From the NCBI GenBank assembly GCA_036172245.1, contig JAYWIR010000019.1, positions 1,984,001-2,048,000 on the forward strand: DNA of 64,000 nt, given 5' to 3'. The DNA is from Raillietiella orientalis (lineage: Eukaryota). A program made the position numbers and the translations under genes. Position 1 is the stretch's first letter; each line of letters starts with the position of its first letter. Positions 5,267-63,299 of the stretch are shown here, piece after piece. Below the pieces are notes generated by a model. That model was not told the origin of the DNA, did no database searches, and saw only the letters and a program-made list of their open reading frames with translations.

Positions 5267-5659
5267 TCTATGCGCTCATCAGTGATTCTTTTCTGGTTGC
5301 CTTCATATCTTCGGACCCCAAGAACGAAATTTTCTATGCCTTATCCCGAGAGAGGGGCGAAGAAAACGAGCATCAGCACCTGCTGTTTCCAAACATCAGT
5401 GAATGAAAACTTTGTCGATCGCAGAAGCATTGCGTCTTCTTGCAAGAAGAGCTCAGATGCGTCGCCTCAAAGAAACCACTGCTCGAGTGAATTCATGCGT
5501 GCATGACCCTATCCAGAAGGAAGAAGCAGGAAGTACCTTTTTGGAGTGCACATATGGGTCTTCTCTATAAGATTCAACTTCCAAAAAAGAAATGTGTGTG
5601 GAAACCTGAAACTGATTTTTGTGGTTTGAACAGTTGCTCTTCCTGCTTTTCTTGATAAT

Positions 5660-16200: not shown

Positions 16201-16319
16201 CCCTCCTCCGTCTCCTGTTTTTTCTTTGTCCCTTCCCCTACGAGCCGAAACTTCGAGCTCAACTCCTGTTGAGGAACGTCCTCTAAGGACCTGCAAGGTC
16301 CAGGATCCGCCTCAAAGAC

Positions 16320-17875: not shown

Positions 17876-17880
17876 TGAAA

Positions 17881-18205
17881 AACAGAACCGCATCCAAAAA
17901 AGGTCGCGAGGTTAGACTAGAAAGCTTCATTTCATTCCCGATCACGAGGGTGCTGCTTTATCCCGGTGGCGGATTCCGGAGAGGGCAGGCGATATTCCAG
18001 TCCTCCATCGTGCATCCTCGAATTCGAGACTTTGCCCTCATCTCGTAGGAAAACGGGTTACGAGGATGCATGCGCTGATGTGCCGTTCTTCCCTCATCTC
18101 CGCGGGTCGATCCACGCTGCGAATTCCGCAGTGGGGATCGAACCCACCATCCGTGTCACAGAAAGACGACTGTTCGACCTCAGCCTGCCTACCGGGCGCG
18201 TCTGT
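17881..18205 (-). mobile_element. tRNA-derived SINE-like element
   Basis: B-box GGGTTCGATCCCC on the minus strand at 18133-18145, followed by ggatcgac and ttggatgcgg motifs shared with the other copies. Confidence 0.5.
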
Positions 18206-23600: not shown

Positions 23601-24186
23601 TTCTCGATTCCCGTTACCTCCCTCGGTATAGCACGGCACAGCCTCCGGACCATCTCGCAGTTGGCTCCGCCTCGTGCGTGGCAAGGGGTGTTTCGAACCA
23701 CAGGGACGCGCGCCGTCACACCGTGGCGAGAAGGACAGGGGCTCCTGGAGACACAACGCGCTGCCGGAGCTGACGAGTCTTCCGGCACACCTTTGTCTGG
23801 CTCGTAGAGCGTCTTCTGCCGGCATCGTGCGTGCGTCCGCACAGGGGCAGTGAGATGAGATGACCGTCGCCACCTCTCGTGGGCCGGAACGCGTGTTGCT
23901 GGACACCTTTCCATCTGCCGCGAGGTCGAGGCAGCGCTGGGACCTGATGCGCTCGCGTCTCACGACCTGTGCCTTCTTCGGCGAAGAGTGGATTTCCGAC
24001 ACGCGACGCGTCGTGCGAAGCTCGCTGTGCGACCGGCGCCAGTGCTTGCCCTGCGCCCCAATAACGTGGCGACTCTTCTTGCAGCACAAAGGAGCGTCCT
24101 CGTCCCTGGTGTTCTCCACTGGAGTGATGCTGCTGTGCTCGTTGCTGGTGCTCGCCAACCCTGCACGCGTGCTGACCACGAGCTGA
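20693..24186 (+). CDS. Mucin-like secreted/GPI-anchored surface glycoprotein, paralog 1 (spliced; net frameshift inside the repeat as assembled)
   Basis: ATG 20693 opens a signal-peptide-like MGCTEPTTLLTILTLAAL. A 49-nt GTAAG..CAG intron (21145-21193) joins in frame to the KPTTTP repeat exon 21194-23115. Phase-0 donor GTAAAT at 23116 and acceptor ttcttgcag at 24084 lead to the last exon HKGASSSLVFSTGVMLLCSLLVLANPARVLTTS*, with AATAAA at 24208. Possible extra introns at 20762-20897 and 20950-20978. Confidence 0.65.
21300..23046 (+). repeat. 18-bp coding minisatellite (AAGCCAACCACCACC(C/T)CC; KPTTTP/KPTTTS/KPTTPH/EPTTTS), roughly 97 units
   Basis: Read directly. Irregular C-run lengths at ~22130-22590. 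Confidence 0.97.
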
Positions 24187-24207
24187 GGTGAAAGATCGAC
24201 GTGCCTG

Positions 24208-24213
24208 AATAAA
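24208..24213 (+). promoter_or_regulatory. Polyadenylation signal of mucin paralog 1 (equivalent at 39268-39273 in paralog 2)
   Basis: AATAAA 21 nt after the predicted stop codon. Confidence 0.6.
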
Positions 24214-24899
24214 GTCCCTTCGAATGCGAGCAACGCGGTCAGATCATTCCTTGCAGCTTCCTTCTCCCGCATGGCTATTCCGGGTTCTCCCTGTGAATCA
24301 AGGGTGGTCAGGTGGACAAACGGTGCACCGTTTTCCGCAGCGACGAATTTGGAGTCTGCGGCGCGCGACGTGCGCAAGGTGCACGAACGCGTGTCTCTGC
24401 GTCGGCCTGCGCGCAATTGGTAAATCTGCGAGGGTTGCGCAGGAGCGTGAAAGGTCAAGCGCATGCGCAGCTGAGGAAAGAGCGCGGCATGTCTTGCCGA
24501 TGTGTTGCTGTTGTCGGGTGGCCTCGTGTGTGGGGAAAGGGGGCACGTTGCGGCTGATTTCTGCAGAGGTGATTGGCGGCTGGGAATAGGGATTGCGGCA
24601 TTGTGGTGTGCAGGTGTCGGTGTTGGGAAGGGCTTGCTGCTTTGCGACTTTCCTGGGAGAGCAAAGAGAGGAAGGGCTGTACGGCGAAGAGGGAGTTGCG
24701 GTGTGCGTGGAATCCCTGGGATACTGTTCCTGTTCTTTTCGAGTTGTGTTTGGAGTGGGAAGATGTGGTCCTCGCCGACTGCATCGCGGCTGGGAATTTC
24801 ATCGTGTGATCGATATGTGGAGAGAACAAGCCCTTTTCTGAGACACACCAGTTTCCGGTTGATCTTCTTTCGACTTTCGAAACAAAGTTTAGTCAAAGT

Positions 24900-25980
24900 G
24901 CCATGGAGGAAGCGGTAGCGTGCGCCATCGTGCTGGAACTCCCGGAATCTCGCGTGCGTCGGACTGCAAAGGGGCGTGCTGGATGCCCCGGAGCGCGGAC
25001 GTCGATTGGAGAGTGGATTGCGTGGTGCGCGCAATCTGCCGATCGCCAGAAAACGGTGGAAACCCATGATGGATGGTGGCTGATGTCATTCGAGAGTGGT
25101 GACAGCTCATCCACGCATGGTTCCTGAATGTGGGGGAGAGACAAGTTCCCTGATAGTTCGTGATTCCGTCGGGAACGGAAGACCTCGATCCGCGACCACA
25201 GCAGGGAGCGTCTTGTCTTCTCACTGATGCGGGGGAGCCACCAGAGCAGTTTTTCCTCCCTCGGCTAAAGATGCCTCGTTATCGGCTGGATGCGAGTACG
25301 AGTAACTGTGGTTCATGCAGGTTTCGGTCGTTCTCTTCAGCATCCGTCAAAGGCTGGAAGGCGAGTATGTCCGTATTGCAGCCGCTGGGTCCAGAAGTTA
25401 GTTTTCCGTGGGTGCGAAGAAGCGCTTCGATCTGTCCCCGGGCATTAGCTCTCCGAGTGGTCAACATCATAGGGGAGCGGCCGCACAGAGCGGTCCGTGA
25501 AGACGTTCATCGGGGGGAAAGAAGAGGTAAGGAGCGGCGCTTTCGCGTGCAGCAGCCCCGTTTTCCGATCAGTTGCTTTCCTTCTTTTGGTGTGCAGTCG
25601 ATGCACAGCCTCTCCTCTGCTCGAAGGCGAAATTCCCGACAGCACCTCGGCGATGGTGCTTGAGGTAGGCGGGAGGGAGGGGAGGCAGGCGAAACCGGTG
25701 GCTCAACCTTTGCATGGGCGATTCCCGGCTCGGATTGCAGAGGAAAGAGGCATCGGGAGAGGACAAGAAGTCACTAATCTGCATCGGAAGGAGCGTTGAG
25801 GATGCTGGAACGTATGGTCCGGTCAGCCGGTGGTACCTTCCATGGTAGCCAGCAGGACGTGAAGGAACGGAGGAGCGAATGTTGTGATTTCTCCACGTTG
25901 GCTATTGCATGGCCGGAGGAGCTATTGTGAAGAAGAGGCGCATTCACCAGCTGTCCAGCCAGCTTTCCTTGGCAGTGCTT
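24900..25980. repeat. Family C dispersed repeat, copy 2
   Basis: Alignable to 10830-11130 and 12035-12520 in the same orientation. Confidence 0.85.
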
Positions 25981-28109
25981 GGACGCCGTTTGATATAAGG
26001 TGACAGCGTTTGTGCTCACCCAAGAGGAAGAAACTTTCTCCGTGTGGCTGGCATTGATGTGCCCTTTCGCAGAACGTAGTTCCATGGAGACTGGTAAAGG
26101 GGGTGAGTACACATCTAACTGTTTTTTTGAACGTTGCTTTCAGATTTCCCTCACAGATGACCTGGAGCAGGCATCGAAGTTCTGTGTCTCCGGATCGCTG
26201 CCCTGGCTCTCGTTGGACAGGAAGTGTTGGAAGAATGCTTCCAGTCCTTCAGCTGCCATCGAAGCGTGTGATTCGTATGTGGCAGTGGGGAAGGACGCCG
26301 CAAACTGTCATTGCGATCCACGAATCTTTCCTTGCTGCCGTTATGTGTGGCTACGTTTGTGGATGGAGGCATTTCAGATCCACTGTTGACACCGAGGCGC
26401 AAATGGTACCCGGGAATCACACGAACGAAAGCACACATGCTTTTTCTTCGGATGTGAGGCATCCTTGTGCTTGTCCTTTCCTCAGCTTCCTTCATCAGCT
26501 TTCTCAGTTCACGTGGATTCGCTTATTGTGGGGGAGGGGGGTCATCGCTTTCAGCCACCACGGCCAGTTCGAATCACATAATATCACGACTTCATCCGGA
26601 AACGAAGATGTATGAAGGTATTCCGTGCTCGCAGCCGTCGGCATAGTTCTCTCCTCCATGTTGGAGCAGCTATTGGTACGCACGTCGCGTGCCCCACCTT
26701 CTACAAGACAGTCCTTCCTTCCGGATTTTCCGTCTCGAGTTGGCTGCCTCGATGTGAGATCTGTACAAACCCAGTCAATGAGTGTCTCCAGGGATCACAA
26801 TTCCACCTGTGGATCGACACCCTACGCTGACGCCAGCATCATTCTATGCCCCTAGGATTTTTTTTCCTATTGGTGTTTCTGTGTCTTGGAACGTTTGGCT
26901 GTGGAATAGCAAGTGCAGGCAGCTGTTCACTTTAAAAAATGAAGGATTTTTCCTGATGCTCTTTTTTTAAGTCACCCTTTGTTTTTTATGTATCAGGGTG
27001 TCGTAATTTGACTACGCAGTTGATTGTGGTGAGTGTTCACGCCACTGTCAATGGTGTTCCTCAGACGTCAGTCTAAGTCATCTGAGCTGATGAGCCAATC
27101 TCTCAGAATCCATGGAAAATACGAGTTTCCTGGAAGGGTTCGATCTCGAACATGGATGCCCAAGATCTAAGCACTCGAACGTCTAGCTACATCTTGCTGT
27201 TTGAGCTCTCAATTATGTCGCCGTAAGGTAGGGTCGGGTCTCCAATTGGATTTTTCTTCTCTCTCTTTTCGGTTCCAGGAGAGGACAGACTGTTCCCCGT
27301 CCTGGAGGCCTTGGGTCCCACTCTCGATCTCCATAACCCTCCTGAAAATTCTCACGAACTATGAACTGACCGCCCCGTGTGACAAGAGTAGGAGAGTGTG
27401 GTCCGTAATCAAACGCATGCTGCTCGTCTTCTGTAGTCGGGATACTCGCAATCACCATCAGCTCGTTGCTTCACTGTGCTGAACTTCGCCTCTTTTCAAG
27501 ATTTCATCTTCCCCTCCTCTTGCCTGTTACTCTCTGTCTGAGAACTCGTAATGAAATAGGTTAACCTCGTTCGATTACTAACTATCCGCCTTCGGGCTGT
27601 CACCGAGGTTCTTCACTATTCTGAATCCAACTCCCCATGTTGCATTCCACTGTCGTCCTCCCAGGAGGATCTACCCCCTCTATCCACGTGCTTTTGGATC
27701 GGCACTGGAAATTTTCCAGAAAGCCTTCAAAGTCCGGCCACCGGACCCATTTTCAAGAGCAAACATCCAGGTTTGCCCAAGGTTGCTTTCGAAAATGGAG
27801 CTGTTCCCGCCACGACCATGGCAGCGGTCAATGCTGAGAAACTGAAAAGCACACACCGGTCATGCCTACGTAGGGCTTTGCCTCCCGGAACAAATTCGGG
27901 GCAGCAATCGCAACAAGGAGTTCTGAGGAACGCAGATTTCGCTGTCCCTCGGGCCCTACAGATGAGTTTCTAGCAGACCGCTCGTAGAGAGCGCTTGACC
28001 TAGATCTAAAGGCCCGTGAAGGTTTGCCTGGAGGCAGAAATGTGTCATTCCGCTCCCTGAGGAAGCGCAGGGATTTGCAGGTTACGTATGTCAGGCAGGT
28101 AAGGTTTCG

Positions 28110-29900: not shown

Positions 29901-29984
29901 TTTTTTCCATCAAAAGACAGCCAAAATCACTGGAGGGGAAGAGATTCCTCAAGTGTTGTCTCATGACAATGAAAATGTCCTACT

Positions 29985-30400
29985 TGTCCTCGAAGGGAAC
30001 TTCTTCCTTATTCTCTCCGGAGGGACCCCCCTAGGGGGATGATACATTATTTCTTCTCCTAAGGGAATCAAGTAAGGATCCGCTCCTGGAATTTCTTCTT
30101 CAGAGGCAACCCACAAGGGAACCGCTGCTGGTTTGTCCCTCTGAAGAGAACCTGGAAGCGACGCATCCCAATTCCTCTAAGGATCACTCCCTGAAGGGGA
30201 GCAGTGCACATCTGACACTCTAGAGAGGCAGGAGGCAAACTTCAAGGCAAGCATCAACCAGATCCATGGTACACGATGGAAGGTCTCCCCACGAGGATAG
30301 GGGCTGGCTCTCTTTTCACAACCGGAGGGGAACTTCTAAGGGAATCTGTGTTCCTTGATGTGCTGAAAGGATCCCGGAAGGTCACCTTCCATTCCCGGGA
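29985..30400. repeat. Family B repeat copy
   Basis: aggatccgctcctggaatttcttc and cccctctgaagagaac motifs match the reverse complement of 45600-45700. Confidence 0.75.
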
Positions 30401-30499
30401 GCCATCCGCTTTCCGGATTCCACCTGTGTTGAACCCTGCTGGAGCTGCTGGAACACTTGGACTTTCCGGCCGCATTGTGGGCCTGCCTGCGCTCCAGCT

Positions 30500-31807
30500 G
30501 GCGCCACGCGCTCATCAACTGCAGACGGTGCACGGAGTGCCGGCGCGATGCGGTATAAGGCAGGACGACAGCCGGGGCCCCCTGCTCTTTGGCACCAATT
30601 TCGAATTCGTGCTGAGAGCATGCAGCAAGACTCTGGCTCCCCGCCTGCACGTATGTTCCGGCACGCCTGCCGTCTCAGCATTCGCGGACAATCTTCTGAT
30701 GTTGCTTTCCATATCCACCCCGGTATGCTCACTCCAGGGTTTCTTCGAGTTGCTTAGTCGTGGGACGGGCCTGGTGATGAACAAGGCGAAGTCATCCGTG
30801 TTCCCGTTGGTGCGTCGTGGGCAGAGCGGCTGACTGGATCCGCCTGGGGATCCCCATGAGCAGGTACTTAATGTACCTGGCGTTCCGTTGGGGCTTCGCA
30901 GAAACCTGGTCCAGTCGTCTTCAGAAAGCACTGCAGGCTCTCGACACGTTCCAAAGAGACAGGTTTTATCTGCCGGAACGGGCCGCGGTGTGGAACACGC
31001 TTGTGACTCCCCTCCTCCGTCCCCTCCCTGCTTTTTTTTTGACTCCTGCCATGCATCATTAAAAAGCGAACAAAGGACTTCCTCCGGAACGCCCTCTAGG
31101 GCAAAGTAAGGTCGGTCTCGAGTCCGCCTAAAAGACTTGTGTGCTCCGCGCCGGGACGGCGGCCTAGGTCTCCCCTGACCCTGGCGTGGATGGAGTTGCA
31201 GCGTGGGACTCACGTCCTTCCTTGCGCGCCCTCCACGCAGCCTCACCCACTGCGAAATACACCATCGGCAGGTGGCCACGCTGGTCAGGAAAAACGGATG
31301 GGTCTGGTGCCTCCCAGAGAACAGCAGTGCCTGGTTGCAGGGAACCGTTCGCACGTGGGCGAGGATCCAGGAGCCAAGCGCGGGAAAAGTCTGTCGTTTC
31401 CTGTACGCGCGTAACAACAACTGCACGCTCCAGGAGATCCTGGAAGATCCCGCGAAGAGCAAGCAGAATCTCCCTCGCCTCCGCGCTGCCCTCTCTTAGA
31501 GAGCATATGGGCAGGAGCCTCACCTCTAGATGGGAGGTTACTGTGGAAATCTTGGAAGCAGGAAAGGACTAGGCTAGTGGACGACGGGACAGCTCACTGA
31601 CACTGCGACCCCCAGTGCTCGACCTCGTGGACTTTTTTCCTTTTGTTTGCCTCCCCTTATCCTGTGCTGCCGAGGCGAACTCCGCTGGTCTGCATGCCAG
31701 TTCCCAGCAGGTTCCTTTTCGTAGTGATAAGTAACGTGGCAAGATCAAACGTCCTGCCACAGACATGTATGTTTATTTTATAGATAAATGCCCCAGCGTG
31801 ACCAGGT
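30500..31807 (+). mobile_element. LINE family A copy with RT C-terminal half and an internal deletion before the 3' UTR
   Basis: GIRQDDSRGPLLF, SAFADN, GLVMNKAKS, LPERAAVWN. At ~31632 it jumps from ORF2 sequence (homologous to 43255-43390 rc) directly to the T-rich UTR. Confidence 0.85.
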
Positions 31808-31810
31808 GTC

Positions 31811-31985
31811 AACCAGTGTCGCATCCGAAGCCCGTGGGTCAACCAGCGCCATCCTGTGGAGGAACTCGAAACCCACTATCTACCAGTTCCTCGGATTCGA
31901 TCCTTCCTCAGTTGGGATTGGAGCCCACCACGCTTGGTCCCACGAGCAAAGACGCAGCCGCAAAACCGCCAGGGCGAGCTGTAGG
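31811..31985 (-). mobile_element. tRNA-derived SINE-like element, 5' part
   Basis: Reverse complement aligns to 45000-45152 and 59040-59206. Degenerate B-box gggctccaatccc. Confidence 0.65.
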
Positions 31986-36600: not shown

Positions 36601-37278
36601 CATATCCCGTCTCACTCATCCTCAGAAAATTCGAGTTCCTCCTTGACACTGACCTCCTGTGTGTCTACTTCACTCACTTCTGCCTTCCAACAAGCGCAGT
36701 TCAAGGTAGAATGTAGCTATAGTTGGCCGGCGAATCAGTAGGATCGCGTTCTTAATCCGTGGAACCAGCAGACGTCAAACAGCAGCTGTCCTACCAGTCG
36801 CTGCTTTCCATCCCAGTCATCTGCCTTCTTCAACAACAGCAACAAAATTGACACTAGCGCAACGATGAGGTCCATGGAAAACAGATCTGTGCGTCCGAAC
36901 TGAATGTCCAAGTATTCCGATGGTGCAGACATTTTAATTCTCTCATATATTCACATCGTTCTCGCCACCCCCAGGAAGGTCACACAGAGAGAATTCCAGG
37001 GGCACCCCCCTGACATAAAACCCACCGCAGCAGTTCTCATTAATGCAAGCTCCAGCATTTTTTCAAAACATGTGTTCTGACGTCATAGTGTGACTGACTA
37101 TGCGAGAGGTACCATAGTGAAAGAACGATTGGTACCATCGAAGTCCACCTTCACATCGACCCCAATGGGCGGAGGCGATCCGCGCACGCACAGTACGTTC
37201 CTAGGCAGGCAGGGGGCACCTTATCGGCATACGTGGACTCGCATACACGACAACCTTTCCCGTTTTCCGATCTCAAAA

Positions 37279-39246
37279 ATGGGATGCTGCGAACGCACCA
37301 CAGTGCTCGTTCTGCTCAGCATGTCTGCACTGTCCGCCAAGGGACATCGTACATCCGGAAGAGAGGGCACAGAGAAGGAGCGAGCAGTTGAAGATTTCGA
37401 AAAGAAGAATCGAACGGAGGGCCTTTCGGAGGACACGCGCAGAACACCTGTTGTCCACTGCAATGATCTTGGTTTTTGTTTTTTCAGGATGGGTCACATG
37501 GTGGATCGGAGATTCTCGCAGGTACCCTCGCCGCCACAGGTACACTTTTCAAACGTCTCACTCCACAGGTGGCAGGAAGGACGCGGCGGAAATGTCCGCG
37601 AGGTCTGGGCAGACGGACTCCATAGTGATAAAAGTGAAGCCTTCCTCTGCCAGCAATCAGGAGGAACCAGAAAGGAAGTCCCCCATTGGATCGTCTCCGG
37701 AAATGAGGATCGGAAAAGAGTCTCAGGGAAACAAGTAAGCTGACTCATGCGAATCGAACACAGAACCCCGCATTTTTACATAGGGAAGCAGCGAACATGG
37801 CCAACGTGGCAGCAGATTCGACAACCGTCCCCAAAAACAGCACCACAGTCCCCATAAAGCCAACCAGTTATAAGCCAACCAGTTATAAGCCAACCAGCCA
37901 TAAGCCAACCAGCCATAAGCCGACCAGCCATAAGCCGACCAGCCATAAGCCGACCAGCCATAAGCCGACCAGCCATAAGCCGACCAGCCATAAGCCGACC
38001 AGCCATAAGCCGACCAGCCATAAGCCGACCAGCCAGAAGCCGACCAGCCAGAAGCCGACCAGCCAGAAGCCGACCAGCCAGAAGCCGACCAGCCATAAGC
38101 CGACCAGCCATAAGCCGACCAGCCATAAGCCGACCAGCCATAAGCCGACCAGCCAGAAGCCGACCAGCCAGAAGCCGACCAGCCAGAAGCCGACCAGTCA
38201 GAAGCCCATAACGAACGCAACCACTGCACACAAAACGACGATACCAACCACAACGGTAAGTGTCTTTTGGCCGTCCAATTCGCGCACGGCACTCTTCGGC
38301 CCGCGTCCACGAGGTCTGCTCTCGCGCACGCACCGACGCTCTTCTTCTCCAACACAGTCGCTCGCTCGCAAAAGCGGAGGTGATCCGTTCTTTCCGGCGC
38401 CTCTCTTCCGAAGACACAGCGCAGCAAAAGCGAGGGGTGCATCGCGGGGCACGTCATCAGCATGGAAGCCAAAGTCCCACCGTCCCGTACCGCGCACGCC
38501 GAGAATGCGACGTCAGCGCACCAGCGTGCAGCATCCCATACCGGACACCTCATTTGTCCGCAAGCCTCCTTCAGTCCACGCGTCCGCCGCGAACGAGCCA
38601 CTTCCTGCCGACCACGGGGATCGCCCGAGACCTGACGGAAGCGCGCCAGCGGCGACACTCTTCTCGATTCCCGTTACCTCCCTCGGTATAGCACGGCACA
38701 GCCTCCGGACCATCTCGCAGTTGGCTCCGCCTCGTGCGTGGCAAGGGGTGTTCCGAACCACAGGGACGCGCGCCGTCACACCGTGGCGAGAAGGACAGGG
38801 GCTCCTGGAGACACAACGCGCAGCCGGAGCTGACGAGTCTTCCGGCACACCTTTGGCTGGCGCGTAGAGCGTCTTCTGCCGGCATCGTGCGTGCGTCCGC
38901 ACAGGGGCAGTGAGATGAGATGACCGTCGCCACCTCTCGTGGGCCGGAACGCGTGTTGCTGGACACCTTTCCGTCTGCCGCGAGGTCGAGGCAGCGCTGG
39001 GACCTGATGCGCTCGCGTCTCACGACCTGTGCCTTCTTCGGCGAAGAGTGGATTTCCGACACGCGACGCGTCGTGCGAAGCTCGCTGTGCGACCGGCGCC
39101 AGTGCTTGCCCTGCGCCCCAATAACGTGGCGACTCTTCTTGCAGCACAAAGGAGCGTCCTCGTCCCTGGTGTTCTCCACTGGAGTGATGCTGCTGTGCTC
39201 GTTGCTGGTGCTCGCCAACCCTGCACGCGTGCTGACCACGAGCTGA
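37279..39246 (+). CDS. Mucin-like secreted/GPI-anchored surface glycoprotein, paralog 2
   Basis: Signal-peptide-like MGCCERTTVLVLLSMSALSAKG at ATG 37279; 49-nt intron 37735-37783; uninterrupted repeat exon 37784-38255; canonical GTAAGT donor at 38256; last exon 39145-39246 identical to paralog 1; AATAAA 39268. The 5' exon structure is ambiguous (1-nt indel relative to paralog 1). Confidence 0.7.
37857..38201 (+). repeat. 15-bp coding minisatellite AAGCC(G/A)ACCAGCCA(T/G), 23 units (KPTSY x2, KPTSH x9, KPTSQ x4, KPTSH x4, KPTSQ x4)
   Basis: Counted directly. Confidence 0.97.
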
Positions 39247-40799
39247 GGTGAAAGATCGACGTGCCTGAATAAAGTCCCTTCGAATGCGAGCAACGCGGTC
39301 AGATCATTCCTTGCAGCTTCCTTCTCCCGCATGGCTATTCCGGGTTCTCCCTGTGAATCAAGGGTGGTCAGGTGGACAAACGGTGCACCGTTTTCCGCAG
39401 CGACGAATTTGGAGTCTGCGGCGCGCGACGTGCGCAAGGTGCACGAACGCGTGTCTCTGCGTCGGCCTGCGCGCAATTGGTAAATCTGCGAGGGTTGCGC
39501 AGGAGCGTGAAAGGTCAAGCGCATGCGCAGCTGAGGAAAGAGCGCGGCATGTCTTGCCGATGTGTTGCTGTTGTCGGGTGGCCTCGTGTGTGGGGAAAGG
39601 GGGCACGTTGCGGCTGATTTCTGCAGAGGTGATTGGCGGCTGGGAATAGGGATTGCGGCATTGTGGTGTGCAGGTGTCGGTGTTGGGAAGGGCTTGCTGC
39701 TTTGCGACTTTCCTGGGAGAGCAAAGAGAGGAAGGGCTGTACGGCGAAGAGGGAGTTGCGGTGTGCGTGGAATCCCTGGGATACTGTTCCTGTTCTTTTC
39801 GAGTTGTGTTTGGAGTGGGAAGATGTGGTCCTCGCCGACTGCATCGCGGCTGGGAATTCCATAGCGTGATCGATACATGCGTATGGAGGGAAAGCTCTCT
39901 TTTGAAAAATACCAGGTTCCGGTTGATCTTCTTTCGGCTTTAGGACTGAAGCCACTGGATCGTGTTGGCGTGAATGGGATCTTCTGAAGTGGGGGATGCT
40001 TTTCCCTACGCTCGTGGTTTGGCAAAAGTGCATTTGCTGACTTCTGTTGTGTCGTTTCCGATGCGTGGCTTTTCTCATCAAGGACTGCAGCCTCCTTCAT
40101 CAAGGAATGAACTGTTGGATGAGTGAGTCGATTCCGTGAGGTCTCTTCGCTTCCTGTGCAAGCGCGCCGAAATCGTGTCGAGACGAATCCTCGTCGACCC
40201 TTCTCGACTCTGCTCTTTCACCTCTTCTTCACTGAGCTGTGAGTTGCATCTTAGGTATTTGAAGCGCAATCTTGGAATGCCTCTCTGATATGAATCTTCG
40301 GAGGCTTTCATCGAAGTGCAGTTTTATGTACGAGGCCTGGAAGGAACTTTCCGCTGGAGAAGATGAGTGCCATTCTAAAGGTGAGGGAACGACACATGAC
40401 AGTAGCACGCGATGATGGTAGACAAGGGATTCTTGTCTGGTATAAATCGCAGCATCCCTCTAATTTGCCCACATGAGAGCGGGTCCAGAGGTGGTTCTGA
40501 GATGAAATTCTGCTGCACCCCCGAAGGCACTTCCTCTGAGCTGGCTGGTGAAGAGCTCCTCCCTTCTTCCTGGCCTGTGCCTGAAGAACGCGCGGGCCTC
40601 CTGGGGGGCCATGGCTGCCCGTGGGCAGCTCCTCCGTGGAAGGGTGGAGGCGACACGAGAAGCCGCTTTTGTCCGCAGCGTTTCCCCGACTTCGTGTCTA
40701 CCTAAAGGTGCCGTGCCTCCTCTGCGCGCCTTCACGAAGAAGGGACGCGCTTCCACGGGCGTCCTTGAGAGCTCAGCTCGACGACGGAAGACCCTGAGA

Positions 40800-42489: not shown

Positions 42490-43425
42490 TTTTCCACCCG
42501 GGTTCGCATTTTTTTTGTGGTTGGATCGGTGGTCCAAACACGTCCTTTCTGTCGATACCTTGCCGTGTTACCGGTTCGCAGGCCTGTGAGGTCTGCCACG
42601 GTAGCAGAGGGGAGGAGGCAAACAAAAAAAGGAAAGAAAGAAACAAAAATAAAAATGAATAGAAAAGCTTAAGAGGGATGCGGGAAGAGGTCCCATTCTG
42701 CTCAGAGATCCTCTGCTTCCTTTCGAGATGCGGGCAAGCTCCTGCTGCAAACAGCCCTTGATGTGGGGCCATCTCCTTGCCATCCTCATCTATCGGAAGG
42801 CGAAGTAGATGTGGCATCCCTGTCGATGTGCCCTCCTCTTGCTGCGCTCCGGACAGCGACGATCCGGTGCAAGTAGCAGAGGGCTGCTGGCGAGACTGCC
42901 GGCCGAAGTGCGTCGCGAACGAGGAGTGGTTTTAAAGCGTCCCTGGAGTTGCCTCCGGGGATTGCTAGGATCGAGGCGAAGCGTCCCCAGAAGGACAAGT
43001 GGGCAACAGAATCCACAAGCAGATGAGACGGGGATTCGTGCTCTCCCTACTTGCCACAGTTGGGGTCCACACACACCCTGTGTTTAGTGATGCCGGCGGA
43101 CGTCGCACGAGAGCTTCAGTGCAGCAGCAGTAGCAGCAACAGCAGCGCCGACCCCTGCCACTACAAGGAGAGGGTGTGTACGTGTCGAAAAGCGCTGGAG
43201 GACACTGCAGTTCTTCCTCAGGAATACAGAGTGGCTCGCCTCAGCACGAAAGTCCTCGGAGGGAGGGCACTCGGAGTCTCAGCGTCCGTAATCTGGCCGT
43301 CGTCCACTCACTCATCTTCTCGTGACGGAGATTTCCACCGAGACATCCCCATCTAGCCGGAAGGCTGCTATCCATGTGTTCCCTCAAGGAAGACAGAGCT
43401 GCGGCGAAGGTTGAAGATTTGGAAG
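42490..43425 (-). mobile_element. LINE family A 3' portion; 42940-43425 is nearly identical to 47545-48028
   Basis: CVDPNCG..HESPSHLLVD finger, MARRWPH and T-rich UTR. Confidence 0.8.
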
Positions 43426-44994: not shown

Positions 44995-45155
44995 TTCGCG
45001 TGTGGCTATGGCCTCCTCCTTGCGTAGTACCAAGCGTCGCGGGTTCGAATCCCGCCCTGGCGAGGATAGACGACGAGAAATAGGTGCTTCGTGGGTTCCG
45101 AATCCCCTCGGCAAAGATGACTCTGGTTGGCCTATTTGGATGCGGCACTGGTGAA
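44995..45155 (+). mobile_element. tRNA-derived SINE-like head and body
   Basis: Perfect B-box GGTTCGAATCC at 45042-45052 with a weak A-box-like tggctatgg upstream. Does not fold as a complete tRNA. Diverged copies elsewhere in the window. Confidence 0.7.
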
Positions 45156-45159
45156 CACA

Positions 45160-46000
45160 GGATGACCCCGTTGACTGGCCGGGATTTAGAGTCGACCCTC
45201 CCAGGGTCCTTCGCGGACATCAATGAGACACGAGCTACTTTCTTCGGTCGTGCACATGGAGCCATACCCTATCCTCGTGGGGGGACCTTCATCTCGTACC
45301 TTGGAGCTTGTGGAGAGATACCACTCCAGAGCGTGAAGAGGTGCTCTTCGGATGAGACACTGATGAAAGCCGGAAACCGGATGCCCCCGTTGACTAGCCG
45401 GGATTAGAATTTGACCTCCGTAATCCTTCCAGGATTCAAGAAGCCATGGTTTCCTTCGGGGTTCCTTTCCTGTTGTGAGAGTGGAGCCAATACATGGAGC
45501 CGGTTGATACCTCCCCCTCGGGTGGCGAGTTGCCTCTCCAGGGTGTTAGTAAGAGCGCTACTCCCTTCGGAGAGCGACCCTTCAGAGAAATCGGGAAGCG
45601 TCCCTTCGGGGTTCTCTTCAGAGGGGAAAACCAGGAGTGGTTCTCTCGCGGGTGCTCTCCGGAGAAAGGAATTCCAGAAGCGGATCCTTTCCGGGTTCCG
45701 TTAGGAGAAGGAACAATGAAGAGTCCCCCTATAGGGGGTCCCTCCACAGAGAATGAGGAGGAAGAGGTTCCCTTTGGAGATGATCAGGGCGACGGTTTCC
45801 TCCCAAGCGTCAGAGAGGAACGGACCCCATCCTCGAAGCCTTCCTCGATCCATAGGGTGGTTCCTCCGGGGTTGTCCCTAACATGGAGAGTTACGCGCAC
45901 CCTCGGATAGAGTGGAGCAGTGTTGAAGAGCGTCACGATCCCCAGCTGAAGAGGCGGACGATTCTACAGCACTTGGCGAACCAAAGAAAAGAAAAGAAAG
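45160..46000. repeat. Two tandem family B copies (45160-45345 partial, 45385-45990 long)
   Basis: ggatg.ccccgttgact.gccgggatt.aga occurs at both 45160 and 45379. Confidence 0.8.
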
Positions 46001-46759: not shown

Positions 46760-49700
46760 ACCTGGGTGCGCCAGGACGTTCATTTCATATAGGAAAAAAA
46801 AAAAGAAACAATCATAGTCTCTGTGTGGTCCAATCACTTGCAATTTTGCAGGAGCCTGCAGGGTTACCAGTGCTCAGACCGGTGAGGTCTGCCACGGCAG
46901 CAGAGGAAAGGGGGCAAACAAAAAAAGGAAAGAAAGAAACAAAACGAAGGAAATTCTGGTTGCCGGCACGAGCAGCTCTTTTACGTCCCCCAAGTTCGTC
47001 TGCTGGCGTTGCTCACCCAGCGGAAGGGGAGGGGGATCATCGAGCAATGAACGAACGCTGCCCGAGTTCTCTCTTGGTTTTCCGCTGCATTCTTCCTCGG
47101 GAGCAGCATCGATGTTCGTTGCACCTGCCTTGTGGATTCTACCGACCGTATGTTCGACGCTGCGATGCTTGTGATTCTCGATCCACTGCTTCCCGAAATC
47201 CCCCAGCCAGCGGTTCCATCCTTGGGTTGTCTAAGGAAGCTCTCCATTCCCACTTCTACCTTTACCAGGAAGTCTCAAGGAGTGCTGAAGAACCATCCGC
47301 TCCCTTGGGGGGAGCTCACGAAGCTCTTTAACGCCGACCACACACCCCAAGGGTGTGCATAACTTCAGATTATAGGGAGCAACCCTGGGAAGACCACCCT
47401 ACGGATCCAGGAAGGCTCTTGAGGAAGGAGTCCGTTCCTCTTGCGCTCGATAGGGGAAAATCCCGGAGGGAACCCCTCCCTTGTGGTCTCCGATTTGCAC
47501 CCGGACACTCCAAAGCGTTTCTTAAAATTGAAAATAAAGTGGTCTCTAGAGTTGCCGCCGGGGATTGCTAGGGTCGAGGCGAAGCGTTTCCAGAGGGACC
47601 GGGGGATAACAGAATCCACAAGCAGATGAGACGGGGATTCGTGCTCTCCCCACCTGCCACAGTTGGGGTCCACACACACCCCGTGTTTAGTGATGCCGGC
47701 GGACGTTGCACGAGAGCCTCAGTGCAGCAGCAGTAGCAGCAACAGCAGCGCCGACCCCTGCCACTACAAGGAGAGGGTGTGTGCGTGTCGAAAAGCGCTG
47801 GAGGACACTGCAGTTCTTCCTCAGGAATACAGAGTGCCTCGCCCCAGCACGAAAGTTCTCGGAGGGAGGCACTCGGAGTCGCAGCGTCCGTAATCTGGCC
47901 GTCGTCCACTCACTCATCTTCTTCTCGTGACGGAGATTTCCACCGAGACATCCCCATCTAGCCGGAAGGTTGCTGTCCATGTGTTCCCTCAGGGAAGACA
48001 GCTGCGGCGAAGGTTGAAGGTTTGGAAGTTTGTCAACCAAATTTGGCTTTATGATTAAAATTTTATAAAAATATTTTTATGACAAAGTCATATTTTTTTT
48101 AAATATCCTGGTAGAACACGTAGTTCTACCCAGCGCGAAAGACTTGCCAAAGCCGATACGGAGATCGGTGAGGTCCTCTCCAGCGGCGAGGGGGGAGGAA
48201 AAATCAAACAAAAAAATAAACAAAAAATGAAAGAAAAAAGGAGGGGAATGTTTCCTGGGGAGAAGAGGGAGGGATTACTATTCGCCAGGAGACGTCCTGT
48301 GCATCCTGTTCAGGATGCTGACAAGTTTTGTTTTTTGGCTTCGAAGTTGGGACCCTTGGGAAACGGTCTTCAGGAAGATTTCAGCCCAATGGATGGCATC
48401 CCTGCTATTGTGGCCCCTTCTGGCGTTCCAGCTTGCCATGATTCTGAGTACACGGCAGGGAACTGCCAGAGATGCGGCTGGCGGCAAGGCGTCACGTATG
48501 AAGAAATGCCGGAAAATGCTTTTGAGGTCGCCTCCGGGCACTGCGGGACCTATTCAGTCCCAAGTGGGACCATCTGGCCTCTGTCCGCAGGAAACAAACT
48601 GTAAGCTGGACGGCGTCCCTCCCGTTTCTTCCTCTGTCGGTTTCGCTCCAGCCCACCGCAATCCTGTGGATGAAGCAAAGCGTTGGCAGGGTTGCGGCTG
48701 GCTGCAGGGTGTCCCACACAAAGAGCCGTAAAGCGTCCTTGGGGTTGTCGCCGGGAATTCCTAGAGTCTCAGAAAAGCGCTTTCATAGGGGACGGAGGGC
48801 AACACAATCCATAAGCAGGTGCAGGAGGAGGGATTCCCGTTCCCCGCACCTGCGACACTCCGGGCTCGCCCTCCCCGGCGTCCGGTGGTGTCAGCGGGAG
48901 TTGCAGTGAAGACCCAAGTGCAACAGCAGAAGTGACAACTCTCGCCACTTCAGGGGGAGAGCACTGCTGTTCTTGAGCACCGGGGGCAATTCCAGGCCTT
49001 CGCTTAGAATGCCGAGCAGCTCGCCCCAGCGTTGTAGCCCTCGTGGAAGAACACTCGGGGTCGCAGCGTTCACTACACATGTCCCATGGTCCATCCACTC
49101 ATCATCTTCCTCCTGCCTGCGATTTCGCAGGAGATTTTACTCCTTGGCGGTTAGCTACTGCCAAGTGCCCTCCTTGGGAAGAACATCGTTTCCGCGATAG
49201 GGGTCTGCTCCTCCCACGCGCTCATCCTGGGGCACTCCGGGATCTTCCACAGTGAGCAGCGAGCGTGGATGCCGAGTCACAGGCAGTTCCTTTCTTCGCT
49301 GCCTCCGAAGGGGATTCCGGAGGCAATCTATTCTTCATTTTCTCCGGTGGGACCCCCTAGAGGGGGCTGCTTCATTATTTCTTCTTTGGAGGGAACCCGG
49401 AAAGGATCCGCTCCTCGTTTCCTCCTCCGAAGAGAACTCCGGAGGGACGCTTCCCAATCTCTCGGAAGGGCACTCCTCGAAGGGGGCAGCACTCCTCCCA
49501 CGCTGTGGAGGGGTTTCGAGAGGGAGATCAACCGGCTCGACGGAACGGCTCCGTCTCCGCAGCCGGAAGGGAACCCCAAAGAAACTGGTTCCTCGGTTCC
49601 TGGAAGAACTCATGGAAAGGGGTTTCCTGGAAGACTTGTCTCGAGCTGGGCCTCATTCCTGAATTCTGCATTCCTTCTCACCCGCCTCCCCTTGTGCCCT

Positions 49701-51133: not shown

Positions 51134-52175
51134 AAAATCCCGAACTCCGAAATCCCCTAACGATAGAAATCCTGGAAGATGATTATAAATAAATAGAGAT
51201 GAATATGTAAATATATAATTCATATATACTTCATGTATAGATTAATATGTGTTATAAAGGTTATAAAAATAAATCTATATGCTTATTAGGTATATTAATA
51301 TGTAAATTTATATGTACATTAACGTACAACTGTGTTTTAACATAAATATCCATTAATACTATTGATAGTAATATTGTTTCAACATATATGCATATTCTTA
51401 TTTATTAACATATGCATTATTAATGTAATCAATATGTTTATCATGCATATTAATATATATATAATAGATTAATAGATAGGTGGATGTATATTGTGAAGAT
51501 TACAAACATAAATATGTATGTTTATCGTGTACATTAATTTGTGCCCATATATATTTATACATGTAGTAAATGCGTATTAAATCAATATGTAAATGCCGTA
51601 TGGTAAAAATAAAAAATAATGGCAACAATTAAAAATTGGGAGAAAAAAATAAAAAAACAAACCAAGTTGAAAAGGAAAAAAAACCAAAAGGAATTTGGTA
51701 TTTCTGTTTCCTTTTCCTTACCAACACAATTAATGGCACTCTCTGAGTGAGTGATGTTTTCTCAGCAAATGATCCCATTTGGGGGATTTTGATCGTTTGA
51801 TAAATACATATTTTCATAATTCGATATTTCTACATTCATTTTATATATACATTTATTACATGTATAATATATATGCATATATGCTATTTATTACAGGTAT
51901 AAATATGTATTAACATGTACAATAAACACATATATATTTTTTTTATAATCTTGATAATATGTATTACTCTATATGCAAATATATACATTAATATCTACAT
52001 AATAACCATAGCGTTAAGTACATTAAAGTATATAATAAGCATACATAGTAATAATCTTCACAGCAAACATTAATCTGTGCACAAATGTATATATCAATAT
52101 ATATAATAAACGTATGTCTTTTTTTTTTTTTTTTCCAGATCTTTTGGGATGTTGATCGTTTGGGATTTCGGCGTC
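51134..52175. mobile_element. Non-autonomous MULE-like element (MITE-like): ~950 bp very AT-rich core between imperfect inverted repeats
   Basis: Left gaaatcccctaacgatagaaatcctggaagat vs right (rc) gaaatcccaaacgatcaacatcccaaaagat. An extra internal unit lies at 51778-51798. Confidence 0.6.
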
Positions 52176-53750: not shown

Positions 53751-54799
53751 CACTTAACCTCCTCCGGAGGTATCGTGAGCAGCTCGCAACAACGTGGAAG
53801 TTTTTTTGGCGTCCCTTCGGGGTTCTCTTCAAATGAGGAAACCAAGAGCAGTTCCCTTGCGGGTGCTCTCCGGAAAAAGAAATTCCAGGGAGAGATCCTT
53901 TCGGGGTTTCCTTAGGAAAAGAAATAATGGGACCAGGGGTTAAATTTCTAGCCAGCAATAATCACGTCTTTGCTGCTGCCCTCGGCTATGATATTGCCCA
54001 TGCGCAAAGCTGATTAGACCCTCTTTATAGATCTGCGATCGGGGGTGCGGGGTCGCGAAAGGTTGAGTTCCCATCGGAGGAAGCCCATTTGCCCTCTTCC
54101 TCCAGCACACCGCTCGCAGATCTTCATTCCGTTCAGAGAGTTCTCTGGAGTCATCTCCATCTTCAGACCAAGGAAGTCGCCCCTTCGATGCTCCCGTGAT
54201 TCTGAGGTGGGCCGGAATGGAGATGGTTGAATGAAAGGCAACTCTGGTCCCTTCATTCTTCCATTTTGCATTTTCATTTATTTGTTTATTGCAGTCCTCA
54301 CTCGTTTGGACCCTCTTTGGTTAAAAAAGTCTGTTTCTTTCTCAGTTGCCTTTCTGCTGCCGTTGCTTTTTTTAAGATCCTCCGTTTCGGGCAAACGGCG
54401 GCTTCGAAGGAGAACGCAAACTTCCGTTGGAAGCGCGGGAGTTCTTTCCCTAAAGATCACGGTCGTCCTTCGTTCCTTGGCAGCCGCTGTGCGAAACGGC
54501 GGATCGTCCCCTCCCCTCCCTTCCCCACGCAGGTCTGCTGCATGTCCCAGCAGCGTTCGAAGCTCCTGTGTCTTCAAGTTTTTGCCGGAGAGCTGTTTCT
54601 GCCCACCCTTGTTGATCCCAGAGCTGTCTTGGAAGAAGAAGTCAATCCAGAAACTCCAATCCCCCCCTCCGTGCTTGCTGAATGACCCGTAGTGCGCTCC
54701 AGCAGCGAACTGCTCGGCATCAAAAACAAACGAACAAAACAAATGGACCCCGGAAGCGGATCACGAAATCCACCACATCCGCACGATGGCATCGGTTCC

Positions 54800-59039: not shown

Positions 59040-59910
59040 GGTGTCGACCCGCATGGCTGAGGTCTCCGCTCGTGGCTCCAGGCGTTAGGGTCTCGAACCC
59101 CCCTCGGGGAAGGATCGACGTCGAGAAATGGGATGCGTCGTGGGTTTCGAGTCCCCCTCCCCAGGATGACACTGGTTGGACTACGAGCTTTGGGTACGGC
59201 ACTGGTAGAAGTCCGGATGATTCGTCGACTGGAAGGGATTCGAAGTTGACGCTTTGAGGTCTTTCCAGGACTTTTTAATTTCGGAGTTCCCTTCTGGTTG
59301 TGAAAATGGAACCGTGCTTCCACTTGGGATGATCCTCCATTAGGTACCATGGAACTGGTTGATACCCCCTCGGCGTGTTGGTTGCCTCTCCAGAGTGTGA
59401 AGAGCTGCGCCCTCCCCTCCGGGGAGCGTCCTTAGGAGAAAATCGGGAAGCGTCCTTTCAGGGTTTTCCTCAGGGCAGGAAACGGAGCGGTTCCCTTTTG
59501 GGTTTCCTCCGGAGGAGAAATTCCAGGAGCGGATCCTTTCGGGGTTCCCTTCGGAGACAACCAGGGCAGAGAGTTCCCTCCCAAGAGTGAGAGGAACGGA
59601 CTCCCTTCCTGGACTCATGGAGTACTCCCTAACTCAGCTTGCACCCCCGGGTGGTGTGGAACGGTGTCAAAGGACTTCGTGAGCCCCCAGGAGAACCGTT
59701 CTTCAGCAACTTAGCCAACACCCCCCTCCAAAAATAATAATAATAAAAGAATAGGGAGAAAAGGGATAAGATGAAATGAGGATGAGGATATCAAGAACTC
59801 CCCATCAAGAGGAATGAACTCCTTTTTCCAAAACCCTTCCTGGATTCGTGGAATGGTCCCCTTTAGGGGTATCTCCTAAATTGAAGAGCTTATACGCACC
59901 TCCGGGTGGT
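59040..59910. mobile_element. SINE-like head (59040-59206, +) joined to family B (59215-59720) and a further B fragment (59800-59910)
   Basis: Colinear with 45000-46000. Confidence 0.75.
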
Positions 59911-60889
59911 CTGGTCAAAGAGCTGGAAGTCAAAGAGCCTCCAGGCGACGGTTCTTTAGTATTGGGAGAAAAGCTGTGAGGGAAAAAGAAAGCAGGAAAC
60001 AACCCGGAAAGGATTTTCAGAGCATCTTGGGGGTTTAGGTTCCATCAAGTGTCCGAAGTGTTCCAAACTGCGACACGAAGAGACCTGTGTTTTTTCTGGG
60101 AGCTCGCCACCGAGTTCCTGGAGAGAATCCGGAAGGGGAACCAGACAAGGACGGGGTCCCTGCCACTCGCACGGGAACGGTTAGCACATTCACCTCTTCG
60201 CCCCAACGGGAGGGAAGGGGAGCTGCCATTCCACACTTTTCGTGTTTGCGCTCTCCAGACCCCCTCCCCTCCCTCCCTCCTCTAGGAGCAACTCGGCCTC
60301 TGTGTGTAGTCAGCCGGGCTTTCTGTTCCCGTTGCCTCTCAGTAATCCATTGGCGGTACGTCCCTTTGACACGCGAGAAAAATGTCTCGAGATAAATGCG
60401 CAGACGACACGATAAGGGGAAGGCGGCTGCGAAGCTTCTTTTGAGATTAGACTCGGGGCAGCTTCTGCTTCTCGTCATGCTGTCGCCGAATCGCTCATGG
60501 ATATGAATTCCATGACTACCGCGGTAGCAATACTGCAAACCCAGGGTGCCTGTCTGTGCATCTGTCCCTCCATCAGATGGATGCAGTCCACCCTTATGCT
60601 TGAATCCCAAGAGGAAATTATCCTTCACTTCCAAATTTGACTCATCTAGATGGAGCAGGCGTCGATATGCGCGGAGATGCATCCATTTTGATTTTTTTTT
60701 TTTCTTTCTTCCCAAAAAGTCAGCAGCGGCCCCGTGGGAAGGTCGCTATGGTCGGCATATGGGATGATCCTTCCAGGGTCGCTGGGATACTCACTCAAGG
60801 GCCGTCCACCTCCTGGAAGTGTCCCTCAGCGATATACAACCAGGGAAAGGAATTTCCCACCTACGGGCAGCTCCACCCAAGCAACTAGG

Positions 60890-61292
60890 GCGGCCCCCGA
60901 CGGGACCACCTTGATGAGTGCAGTCACCTTCCTCTTTCGGGAGGAAAACCACCCCTTCCTGGTTGTGTCCGAAGAAAAGAAATACAAAGGGAACCTCTTC
61001 CCCTCATCCTTTTCGAAGGTAGCCTCTCCGTCAGATGGATGCAGTCTAACCCCTCTTCATCCCTTCTCCGGAAGGAACCCGGAAGGGATTTGCTCCCTGT
61101 TTAATCTTCCGAAGGTCGCTCCCCGAAGGGAGCAGCACGCTCCCGGCACTCTAGAGGAGAACCCCCAAGAGAATCGCCTGCATGATTCCTGGAAGGACCC
61201 CGGAGAGTCAGCTTCCGATCTCGTCACAGTCGACGGGGTCATCCATTAGTTCCGCACCCGAAGACCGTGGGACTACTAGCGCCTTCCTGCGG
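60890..61292. repeat. Family B copy ending cagtcgacggggtcatcc, followed by antisense SINE body (61245-61292)
   Basis: 61245-61292 aligns to 31812-31860. Confidence 0.6.
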
Positions 61293-63299
61293 GTGGGGTG
61301 TTCTCGTCTTAGAGGTGGGTTATGTCCCTTGCATGAATTCCGTATCAGCTGAGAAACGATGATAATGGTCCAGGTCGAGCCGCTCAGAACCGAGTCGAGA
61401 GCGGACCCTTTCACTCTTCTTTCACTCCCTTTGTCACATATGCTGCAACCTAATTTCGGTAGCAAGGAAGAGCCACAGACGGTTCCGGTTCCCATACCTG
61501 GAGCTCTGAGAACTCGGCGATCTGCTGAGAGAGAACGGCGGAGTCGTTCTGACAGGATCTGGTTGCCGGACAATCATCGACCTATGGTTGCTTTTGTTGG
61601 CTAGCCTTCCAGAGGTGACCGAATGGGTAGGAAATGGAGAAACTGGAGAAACTGCGGATGCCTTGCGCTTCATAATCTGAGAATTCCCGGGCTGCTGATT
61701 CATCCATCACACCATGAACCGAAGAACTGCACCGTCAGAACGTGGGGGACTACTGAACTCGCGACGGCCTCAAGACAGCAGCAGGTTTCTTTTGAGAACT
61801 TCGCGTCCTTGCTTGGCGCTGGTTGCCATGGACAGCAGGACGGTGGCCATGGGAAGTCGGAATCCGCTAAGGAGCGTGTGACGACTCGTCTGTCCGAAGC
61901 ACATGAACCTGAAAATAGATGGCACCCAACCGCCGGGACAGAGCCGCTCCTGACTCCCGGAGGTTCCATCGAAGCAGGACCGCCTGCGGTCCTCAGCTGC
62001 CGGCGAGAAGGAGATCGCGACGGCGCTTGCGCGAAAGATTTTGGGCGCGAGACCACCAGGAACCGCCACCAGTGCAGGTCTGGGTGGCAGCAGTAAGTAC
62101 TCTAACGCAGTCCTGGAGGTCCGACGGAGGCGGAGGATTCCACGAGAGCGGCCTTCGAGAGTGGCTCAGTCGATGCAAACAAACCTCCCTTGAAGAACTT
62201 GTTGCGCGTCGCATCCGTGCAATCTCTTGACCGGGCTCGCTCTTCTGCCTGGAAACCAAAGATGTTTTGTCAGCCGCTGATTCCAAAGTCCGCGCACTTC
62301 GAGTGATGGGATCCCGAATCAGAGAACGACCTCGAGTAGTCGATCGAATCTAGAGGAATCAAAAACAAACGGATGCTGTCCCTCATCCGCCTCCCGCTGC
62401 TTCCCCTATGAATCCTCCTGGCGCTTGTCCGGAAAAGAACCCCAAATCCAGGAATCTTTCCTAGGCCGGTCAGAAAGCTGGCTCTGCAGAACCTGCCCAG
62501 CACTTGCGGTCCTGAAGAAGAAGAAAAGAAGGAACGGGTAAGAGCAAGCAGTGGAAGTGGACTTGCAATGTATGTCGTCCTCTAGTCTCCACCTTCTTCC
62601 TTTGGAGTTCCGTTTGCTTCCAAGGGAACAAGACGCATCTCTGTCCCCAGTGAGCAGTCCCGGAGGAAAGCAGACTTCCTCCCCCATCCGGTGATTCCCA
62701 GAGCTCGCCGCATGCTGGGGACGCTCGGCTGCGAGTCGAGGAGTCCTTTACCCGCCCGCCCGCCATCTTGTCTCCAGGGTTTGCCTTTCTGCAAACCACA
62801 GCGTAGCTCCACAGCGGAGTCAATTTCCTTGCCGCCTCTTCAGACCTTCTCCGTGAGTCGAAGAGGGTATTCTGCTCCCCTTCTAAAGGGCAGCAGAAGC
62901 GCAGTCGGAGGCAAAGAGTCAAGGAAGGCAGCCTTCTGAGGAGGTGGTCCATCTCCAGAGAGTGGACGTCTAAGCACACTTGGCACGGAGCTGCAGCTCA
63001 GGAAATGCCTCCCCTGCCGTCCACTGGGAACCTTTGCTCCCTCCACGAGGAGATGAGTGACGCAGCCCTTGAGAAACTGTTCCTCTGCAGCGGAATGTAC
63101 ACATACTGATTCCTCATGGATGCCGGTTGAGCATTAGGATCACCACTGTGTTGGCCGCTCTGGAGTCGACAGCGGTCCTGCAGCGGGAACCTTCCAACGT
63201 TTTCCCTACGCTTCGTTCTGGCATCGCGTGGTCCGGGACAACCTTCTGTAGGATGATGCTAGATGTGCACGAGAGCAGACTACTCACGCTAACTGTGAG

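Follow-up and report, generated by a model that had tools for sequence, protein, structure and literature searches.

Repeat X, found in the 64-kb stretch of Raillietiella orientalis DNA analysed here (the window, to which all coordinates refer), is in our preferred reading one long retroposon, and some subgroups of a LINE, family A, preferentially entered, in antisense, a single 15-bp site within it, 85-91 nt past the first B box; we hold this reading with moderate confidence. At 29935-31955 the order is body, site, truncated LINE, site, head. Empty copies of X carry the same site, a second LINE end stands in equal register, and the reverse transcriptase (RT) of the LINE belongs to the L1 superfamily. 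Insertion of the LINE antisense at one fixed X position is seen once clearly (copy A4) and probably a second time (copy A1), and the parasite is probably one SINE-targeting LINE subgroup rather than two families. The A4 locus is composed as follows:

29935-30421, minus strand: body of the X copy that LINE A4 interrupts
30422-30436, plus strand: copy of the site at A4's 5' junction, 11/15 identical to 31812-31826 and overlapping LINE-like sequence
30437-31811, plus strand: A4, a 5'-truncated, decayed LINE that runs from part of the RT to the 3' end, antisense to X
31812-31826, plus strand: copy of the site where the 3' end of A4 meets X, one side of the candidate target-site duplication (TSD)
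31827-31955, minus strand: head of the X copy interrupted by LINE A4

The site was defined as the motif ACCAGTGCCGCATCC, and the window was scanned with up to 3 mismatches accepted. Six matches were obtained against 1.87 expected, a number reached by 0/100 shuffles:

45138: site match, 0 mismatches
31812: site match, 1 mismatch
59192: site match, 2 mismatches
56455: site match, 2 mismatches; absent from the first-pass annotation and adjoining none of the LINE termini found
17881: site match, 3 mismatches
45350: site match, 3 mismatches

The copy at 61245-61259 has 4 mismatches, beyond the motif cut-off, and lies within a genuine partial head, which nhmmer matches to the 31812 head with E=8e-4. 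The site corresponds to positions ~139-153 of the head beginning near 45000, in agreement with the SINE position of ~140-155 assigned to it previously. The first-pass annotation had described five places where a repeat terminus meets the site. As sequence these are real, four of the five being among the motif matches and 61245 lying in the partial head; as five insertions they are not, for they comprise one clean LINE insertion (31812), one degenerate yet significant LINE/site junction (17881) and three uninterrupted repeat copies. The junctions in these three copies, which had been read as the termini of a second element, 'family B', are by nhmmer and multiple alignment most likely the internal head/body boundary of one repeat. 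U2, 5S and 28S were discarded as targets, as Rfam gave no match at the site.

What had been termed family B is thus, most likely, the body of a single tRNA-headed repeat X, 0.7-1 kb long, non-coding and SINE-like. By nhmmer and multiple alignment, B continues from the head in all four head-bearing copies and none of these runs into other sequence. Head, site and B are contiguous at 45000-45985, 59045-59755 and 61292-60926, and the fourth copy has its head at 31955-31827 and its B at 30421-29935, with the LINE fragment between them. The X copies are 68-80% identical and make up 6.4% of the window; one common far boundary is reached by 5/11 X body fragments. A-rich runs follow the far end in 5/7 copies as judged by eye, the A fraction there being 0.35-0.48 in 4/7 and 0.17-0.28 in 3/7, and the head strand of X carries 13 CTTCGG against 0 CCGAAG motifs, at homologous positions and hence not independent. 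These counts together with the A-rich tails indicate a head-to-tail polarity, while a test of polarity by T runs was null (11 T4 vs 11 A4). A 143-aa frame in the X body has no Pfam match, and many of the body indels are, by eye, not multiples of three. No TSD was seen by eye around the two longest X copies. With B read as the body of X, the copies with head and B are the empty target sites. Such uninterrupted copies, which the annotation had proposed to look for, are present with their sites at 59192 and 61245:

59045-59755, plus strand: uninterrupted X copy with head, site (59192-59206), body and A-rich tail; an empty target
59799-59970, plus strand: 3' part of a further X copy that lacks its head, immediately following the tail of the one before
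60926-61292, minus strand: partial X copy with the end of the head, site (61245-61259) and body; an empty target

The copy near 45 kb has a more complex organization:

45000-45137, plus strand: tRNA-like head of X, with an exact B box, GGTTCGAATCC, at 45042-45052 in a T-arm hairpin
45138-45152, plus strand: 15-nt site, first copy, 0 mismatches, at the head/body boundary of X
45153-45349, plus strand: B1, the first ~197 nt of the X body, 70% identical to the following body copy B2
45350-45364, plus strand: 15-nt site, second copy, 12/15 identical to the first; CTTCGG microhomology joins it to B1
45365-46000, plus strand: complete X body (B2, 'family B') containing CTTCGG hairpin modules; it terminates near 45985 with a run rich in A

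The earlier observation that a truncated B lies between two versions of the site is therefore correct, 45153-45349 being flanked by copies that are 12/15 identical. The 70% identity of B1 and B2 rules out a recent local tandem duplication and indicates that the two derive from different X copies. Three origins may be considered for this unit. Two X RNAs or loci may have been joined at the CTTCGG microhomology; several CTTCGG motifs occur in X, so that a junction falling at the site by coincidence would not be surprising. Alternatively, nicking there may have been followed by extension on another X template, which would make the unit a by-product of nicking. Finally, B1 may have been inserted, as in the model of the first-pass annotation. 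A hammerhead reading of CTGATGA at 45360 was dropped because the other X copies, inspected by eye, lack the motif.

In that earlier model, B is a separate non-autonomous element, in LINE sense, which inserted at the site of a short SINE of ~160 nt, so that X would be a composite. The site-B1-site-B2 tandem at 45138-45985 does resemble the SINEU-3 tandems in which copies sandwich TSDs (PMC4494074, as excerpted). Moreover, CxGCACT(T)GGxGAA occurs at both B ends in some copies (4 window matches to a pattern defined post hoc), a weak resemblance to family-A termini is seen at 2/5 of the B near-ends (p 0.01-0.02), and three LINE fragments are immediately preceded, on their 5' side, by X body in antisense. 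Against this, none of the four heads in the 64-kb window is without B, a profile of eight family-A termini gives no significant match at the B ends, and the other 3/5 near-ends do not resemble A termini. The likeness at the far ends (p 0.02-0.05, 2/5) falls below the best match within the body itself, and both the A-rich tails and the CTTCGG bias, with the same proviso on independence, indicate that the repeat runs from head to tail. A fossil TSD around B and an A-like tail of B were rejected as weak and post hoc. We therefore regard a separate B as distinctly unlikely. The claim that two families parasitise the SINE is not supported, B following all four heads and the profile giving no match at the B ends; the alternative offered alongside it, in which B belongs to the SINE as its long tail and family A alone targets it, is supported by the continuity of head and B, the common far boundary and the A-rich runs, the targeting by family A being seen at 2/13 termini. 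The same terminus profile gave no match at the X far ends that would identify family A as the partner LINE for the X tail.

Judged by its sequence, family A is a dead non-LTR retrotransposon of the L1 superfamily. Its copies are decayed and truncated and retain remnants of YADD-type and zinc-binding motifs, with zf-RVT matches below threshold in 2/13 fragments (E=0.017 and 0.14). In the Atlas, the A4 RT fragment retrieved RT clusters with a score of 0.95, 46% of whose members carry PF00078, and it is 59% identical to an intact relative, P0001, over the RT stretch (E=4e-18). P0001, which is encoded on a 2,870-nt contig, matches Pfam RVT_1 (E=5e-24) and is closer to human L1 ORF2 (E~1e-39) than to R2 (E~1e-17 or weaker). 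By tblastn it maps onto A2, A3, A4 and a piece at 16197-16623, and it covers 30436-31451 of A4 with E=6e-46. The remaining homologues of P0001 are 23-32% identical and include proteins from ticks, frog, fish, lizard, plants and a fungus. Many of the distant homologues carry PF03372; P0001 begins past the endonuclease. All copies mapped in the window are 5'-truncated, and the search for an endonuclease region in it was negative. When the A4 RT fragment was used in a word-indexed search for homologues, 0/113 candidates passed, a PDB search with it gave no match, and P0002 was rejected as an RT relative, being a repetitive non-RT protein. Seven metagenome loci are related to P0001, six with 22-35% identity and one with 61% over a stretch of 28 residues, and are too distant to be suited to a flank test; no viral loci related to P0001 were found.

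The first-pass annotation had called the system Tx1-like and had proposed placing the RT in a phylogeny. The L1-superfamily part of this assignment stands, and the Tx1 position is not supported by the tree: in a FastTree analysis of 81 of 90 proteins (9 were dropped by matched-region length), from a homologue set that contains no named Tx1 reference, P0001 has no supported sister group or position (0.41, 0.20). At the 3' end, two groups can be distinguished, A1, A3, A5 and A10 versus A4, A6, A7, A9, A48, A50 and A53, and with at least two such groups 'family A' is not a delimited family. The GC hairpins at the family-A ends fold weakly, at -5 to -10 kcal/mol (no shuffle control).

Thirteen family-A termini were found in the window, those at 42490, 48030 and ~51015 being poorly defined. 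A4 is the sole filled case in which the TSDs that had been suggested as a check were found, as an 11/15 duplication. At its 5' joint, an alignment with A2 shows that the RT sequence of the LINE is itself similar to the site, which would fit microhomology-guided joining. The chance that any of 11 ends lies no more than 3 nt from an X site, in the orientation seen for A4, is ~0.003, as calculated post hoc. The second junction is that of A1:

16803-16840, minus strand: family-A terminus of ~40 nt, standing alone within a different LINE copy; flank weakly site-like, score 13, 95th-99th null percentile
16857-17880, plus strand: A1, decayed 3' part of a LINE, with a zf-RVT hint (Pfam E=0.017); 3' subgroup other than that of A4
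17881-17900, plus strand: A1 flank, degenerate and site-like, in the register of A4 (GTGAC + 9 nt)

The spacing between the terminal GTGAC and the site is equal in A1 and A4. The A1 flank has an anchored score of 24, a value as high as this being found at 0/4369 random non-X positions, and with an 18-nt matrix only 7/127,966 positions are as good, 5 of which are training sites. Its resemblance to the site lies mostly in CCGCATCCAAA, beyond the A[A/T]CC stub that nearly all family-A termini carry and that overlaps the start of the site. These properties bear on a rival explanation in which there is no true targeting: family A would have a broad A[A/T]CC-type preference, A4 would have landed by chance in an abundant repeat, and the A1 flank would be a coincidence or an eroded relic. 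Such a view accords with the 11/13 termini that are off site, with the 6.4% share of X, with the common stub and with terminus 47492, which abuts X body elsewhere and in the same sense. It does not account well for the exact register of A1 and A4, for a flank score that exceeds 4369 null draws or for a likeness that lies outside the stub, and we consider it unlikely.

The A1 junction may also be viewed as a passenger. Neither an X head behind A1 nor an X body ahead of it was found, and with 3/15 mismatches in addition, the A1 flank may be a relic target or a carried-along flank. If an early LINE-in-X junction had been copied with its flank, by hitchhiking or 3' transduction, the repeated junctions would not be independent; the ~20 nt of site-like flank at A1, with no X on the other side, is what a read-through copy would look like. 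A1 and A4 belong to different 3' groups, which argues against a single duplicated junction, and A4 is bordered by X on both sides and carries a duplication of its own. Hitchhiking therefore appears highly improbable as an account of both.

The remaining termini limit how strict the preferred targeting could have been. Ten other termini have flank scores of 2-8 and, with that at 16803, make up the 11/13 termini that miss the site; both flanks are present in 1/13. The 2/13 at the site amount to 15%, compared with the cut-off of >20% given by Kojima 2015 (PMC4494074, excerpted text). Site-bearing termini number 1/4 and 1/7 in the two 3' groups (11 compared), and the nearest in-window relatives lie off site, A9 (of A4) with a score of 6 and A5 (of A1) with a score of 4. 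The ends at 28110, 42490, 46760 and 52970, which had been noted as sharing AACC alone, indeed carry the A[A/T]CC-like stub only. Because most termini in the window sit elsewhere, the preference would be loose or limited to subfamilies.

Additional contacts between X and family A were seen upstream of LINE copies:

49316-49611, minus strand: X body fragment ~55 nt ahead of the 5' terminus of A10, a distance compatible with a junction at the site

The likeness of the A10 5' linker to X is not significant (p 0.14-0.33). Antisense X body stands directly 5' of a truncated family-A copy at 30426, ~49611-49665 and 53808; three such joins exceed the 6.4% share of X, and the proven insertion is that at 30426 only. 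At 53808-54011 (minus strand), a U4 snRNA is represented by its 5' part (Rfam E=4e-4, below the gathering score), which is joined to antisense X body and then to the truncated LINE A53, an assembly that is possibly a three-part template-switch chimera or a set of nested insertions. Other LINE rearrangements include two pieces, 42939-43425 and 47542-48028, that are 93% identical, the second of which is accompanied by LINE terminus 47492 and then by same-sense X body and 330 nt of unassigned DNA. At 15700-16860, two LINE copies are arranged head to head; between parts of one of them lie a stretch of RT that is out of order (16725-16802) and a LINE terminus of 40 nt in reverse orientation.

The heads of X have features like those of a Pol III promoter. 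The B box is exact within a T-arm hairpin in 1/3 full heads and degenerate in the other two; a second B-box-like motif lies ~50 nt beyond the B box at 45042-45052, and no convincing A box was found in the X heads. Rfam matched tRNA in one X head, in the T arm only and below threshold (E=2), and did not do so in a second; ARAGORN predicted 0 tRNA genes in the window. The start of the site is 85-91 nt past the first B box and 32-37 nt past the second motif in 3/3 full heads. This regular spacing would also be expected if the specificity were one of position and not of sequence, with Pol III machinery on the X head steering the LINE to a fixed distance downstream. Dictyostelium TRE3 offers a precedent, landing 40-150 bp downstream of tRNA genes under the guidance of internal or external B boxes (PMC5911963, as excerpted). 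The TRE3 window is broad, however, and its orientation is that of the target, whereas the LINE in X is inserted in the opposite orientation and in an exact register, and the site at the A1 junction lacks any head. Steering by Pol III is, in our estimate, improbable.

It had further been proposed that a Pol III promoter points antisense into the 3' UTR of each element. As a predicted geometry this applies to A4 only, where the first T4 run on the Pol III strand is at 31388 and predicted read-through would cover ~420 nt of the LINE from a head that is decayed. A bolder picture joins a long-branch L1-superfamily LINE with a SINE-site endonuclease, an antisense Pol III trap, and same-site nicks that rebuilt the SINE by taking up body sequence in antisense (site-B1-site, perhaps the whole body); we regard it as doubtful. 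Were it true, the retroposon would be a safe harbour of the LINE and the host would gain a built-in antisense trap.

Under the preferred reading, that of sequence-guided entry into a single long retroposon, insertion may be pictured by analogy with Tx1L and other APE-type LINEs. The LINE's own endonuclease would recognise the site sequence and nick the X-sense strand directly past ...CACTGGT, where reverse transcription would be primed. A staggered second cut ~15 nt away would give rise to the TSD, and the 5' end of the LINE would be joined through microhomology.

The surrounding DNA is repeat-rich, with 54% GC, and contains several unrelated features. An exon at 5086-5301 (plus strand) with neighbours at 4300-5450 matches Pfam AAA_34 (E=2e-14) and is apparently damaged, a possible pseudogene; we take it to be strawberry-notch-like. 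Together with the named RT relatives, this exon is consistent with DNA of an animal. A lactate/malate dehydrogenase N-terminal fragment at 13670-13840 (plus strand; Pfam Ldh_1_N, E=2e-6) adjoins LINE debris and looks bacterial to us, perhaps a piece of an endosymbiont if so. A 110-nt fragment of eukaryotic LSU rRNA (61820-61929, plus strand; Rfam E=2e-14) is isolated among repeats. A block duplicated at 20564-24877 and 37149-39941 is 86-98% identical and has a tandem array coding for PTT-rich, mucin-like repeats, which spans ~1.8 kb in one copy but 0.4 kb in its counterpart. Another, unassigned two-copy repeat, 82-84% identical, pairs 10851-11137 with 24911-25199 and 12042-12523 with 25512-25983, its first copy being broken by an X fragment. 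At 51150-52150 there is an AT-rich block with 23% GC, compared with 54% around it.

Several LINEs with defined targets offer comparisons. In crocodilians, Tx1-Mar (and SINEU) reside in Mariner-N4_AMi and Tx1-9_AMi in Harbinger; Tx1-Mar enters Mariner-N4 antisense at one position, ~240, with a TSD of ~16 nt, and the target strictness of SINEU families ranges over 13-90% (Kojima 2015, PMC4494074, as excerpted). Like Tx1-Mar, family A would be an APE-type LINE with a preferred antisense position in a dispersed transposon. The two differ in that the crocodilian targets are a DNA transposon or LTR element, whereas X is a tRNA-headed, SINE-like retroposon of a host outside the crocodilians, with 2/13 termini at the site. 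Tx1L of Xenopus laevis sits in Tx1D, and its endonuclease nicks almost exclusively its own site (excerpts of PMC1950540 and PMC4494074). It shares with family A a fixed site inside another mobile element; its specificity is strict and biochemically demonstrated, whereas that of family A is deduced from decayed junctions (PMC1950540, excerpted). Keno, Mutsu and Dewa target U2, 5S and a tRNA-Leu spacer, respectively, and are comparable as sequence-specific LINEs at multicopy small-RNA loci; their targets are host genes or spacers, unlike the dispersed, diverged repeat X (passages of PMC3706591 and PMC4640811). TRE3, of the L1 group, likewise lands downstream of a B box and at a comparable distance, within a 40-150 bp window, in the same orientation and at true tRNA genes, unlike family A (PMC5911963, as above). 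X resembles tRNA-derived SINEs in its tRNA-like head with a B box, its non-coding body, its A-rich tail and its dispersal (PMC4494074, in the excerpted part), and departs from the typical ones in an unusually long body of hairpin modules.

No SINE-targeting LINE was found in the literature searched, a scope that leaves Repbase and subscription papers outside it and makes this weak evidence of absence; the excerpted portions of PMC5203782, PMC8869645 and PMC5786205 contain nothing on SINE targeting. LINEs that target transposons are known (Tx1L, Tx1-Mar and Tx1-9_AMi), and a tRNA-headed SINE as a target would probably be new. If the preferred reading is true, a new target class would be added to LINE targeting. 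Retrotransposition would then be the mode of spread of target and parasite alike, and each could be dated against the other. Should an intact copy exist as well, it would provide a new sequence-specific APE endonuclease.
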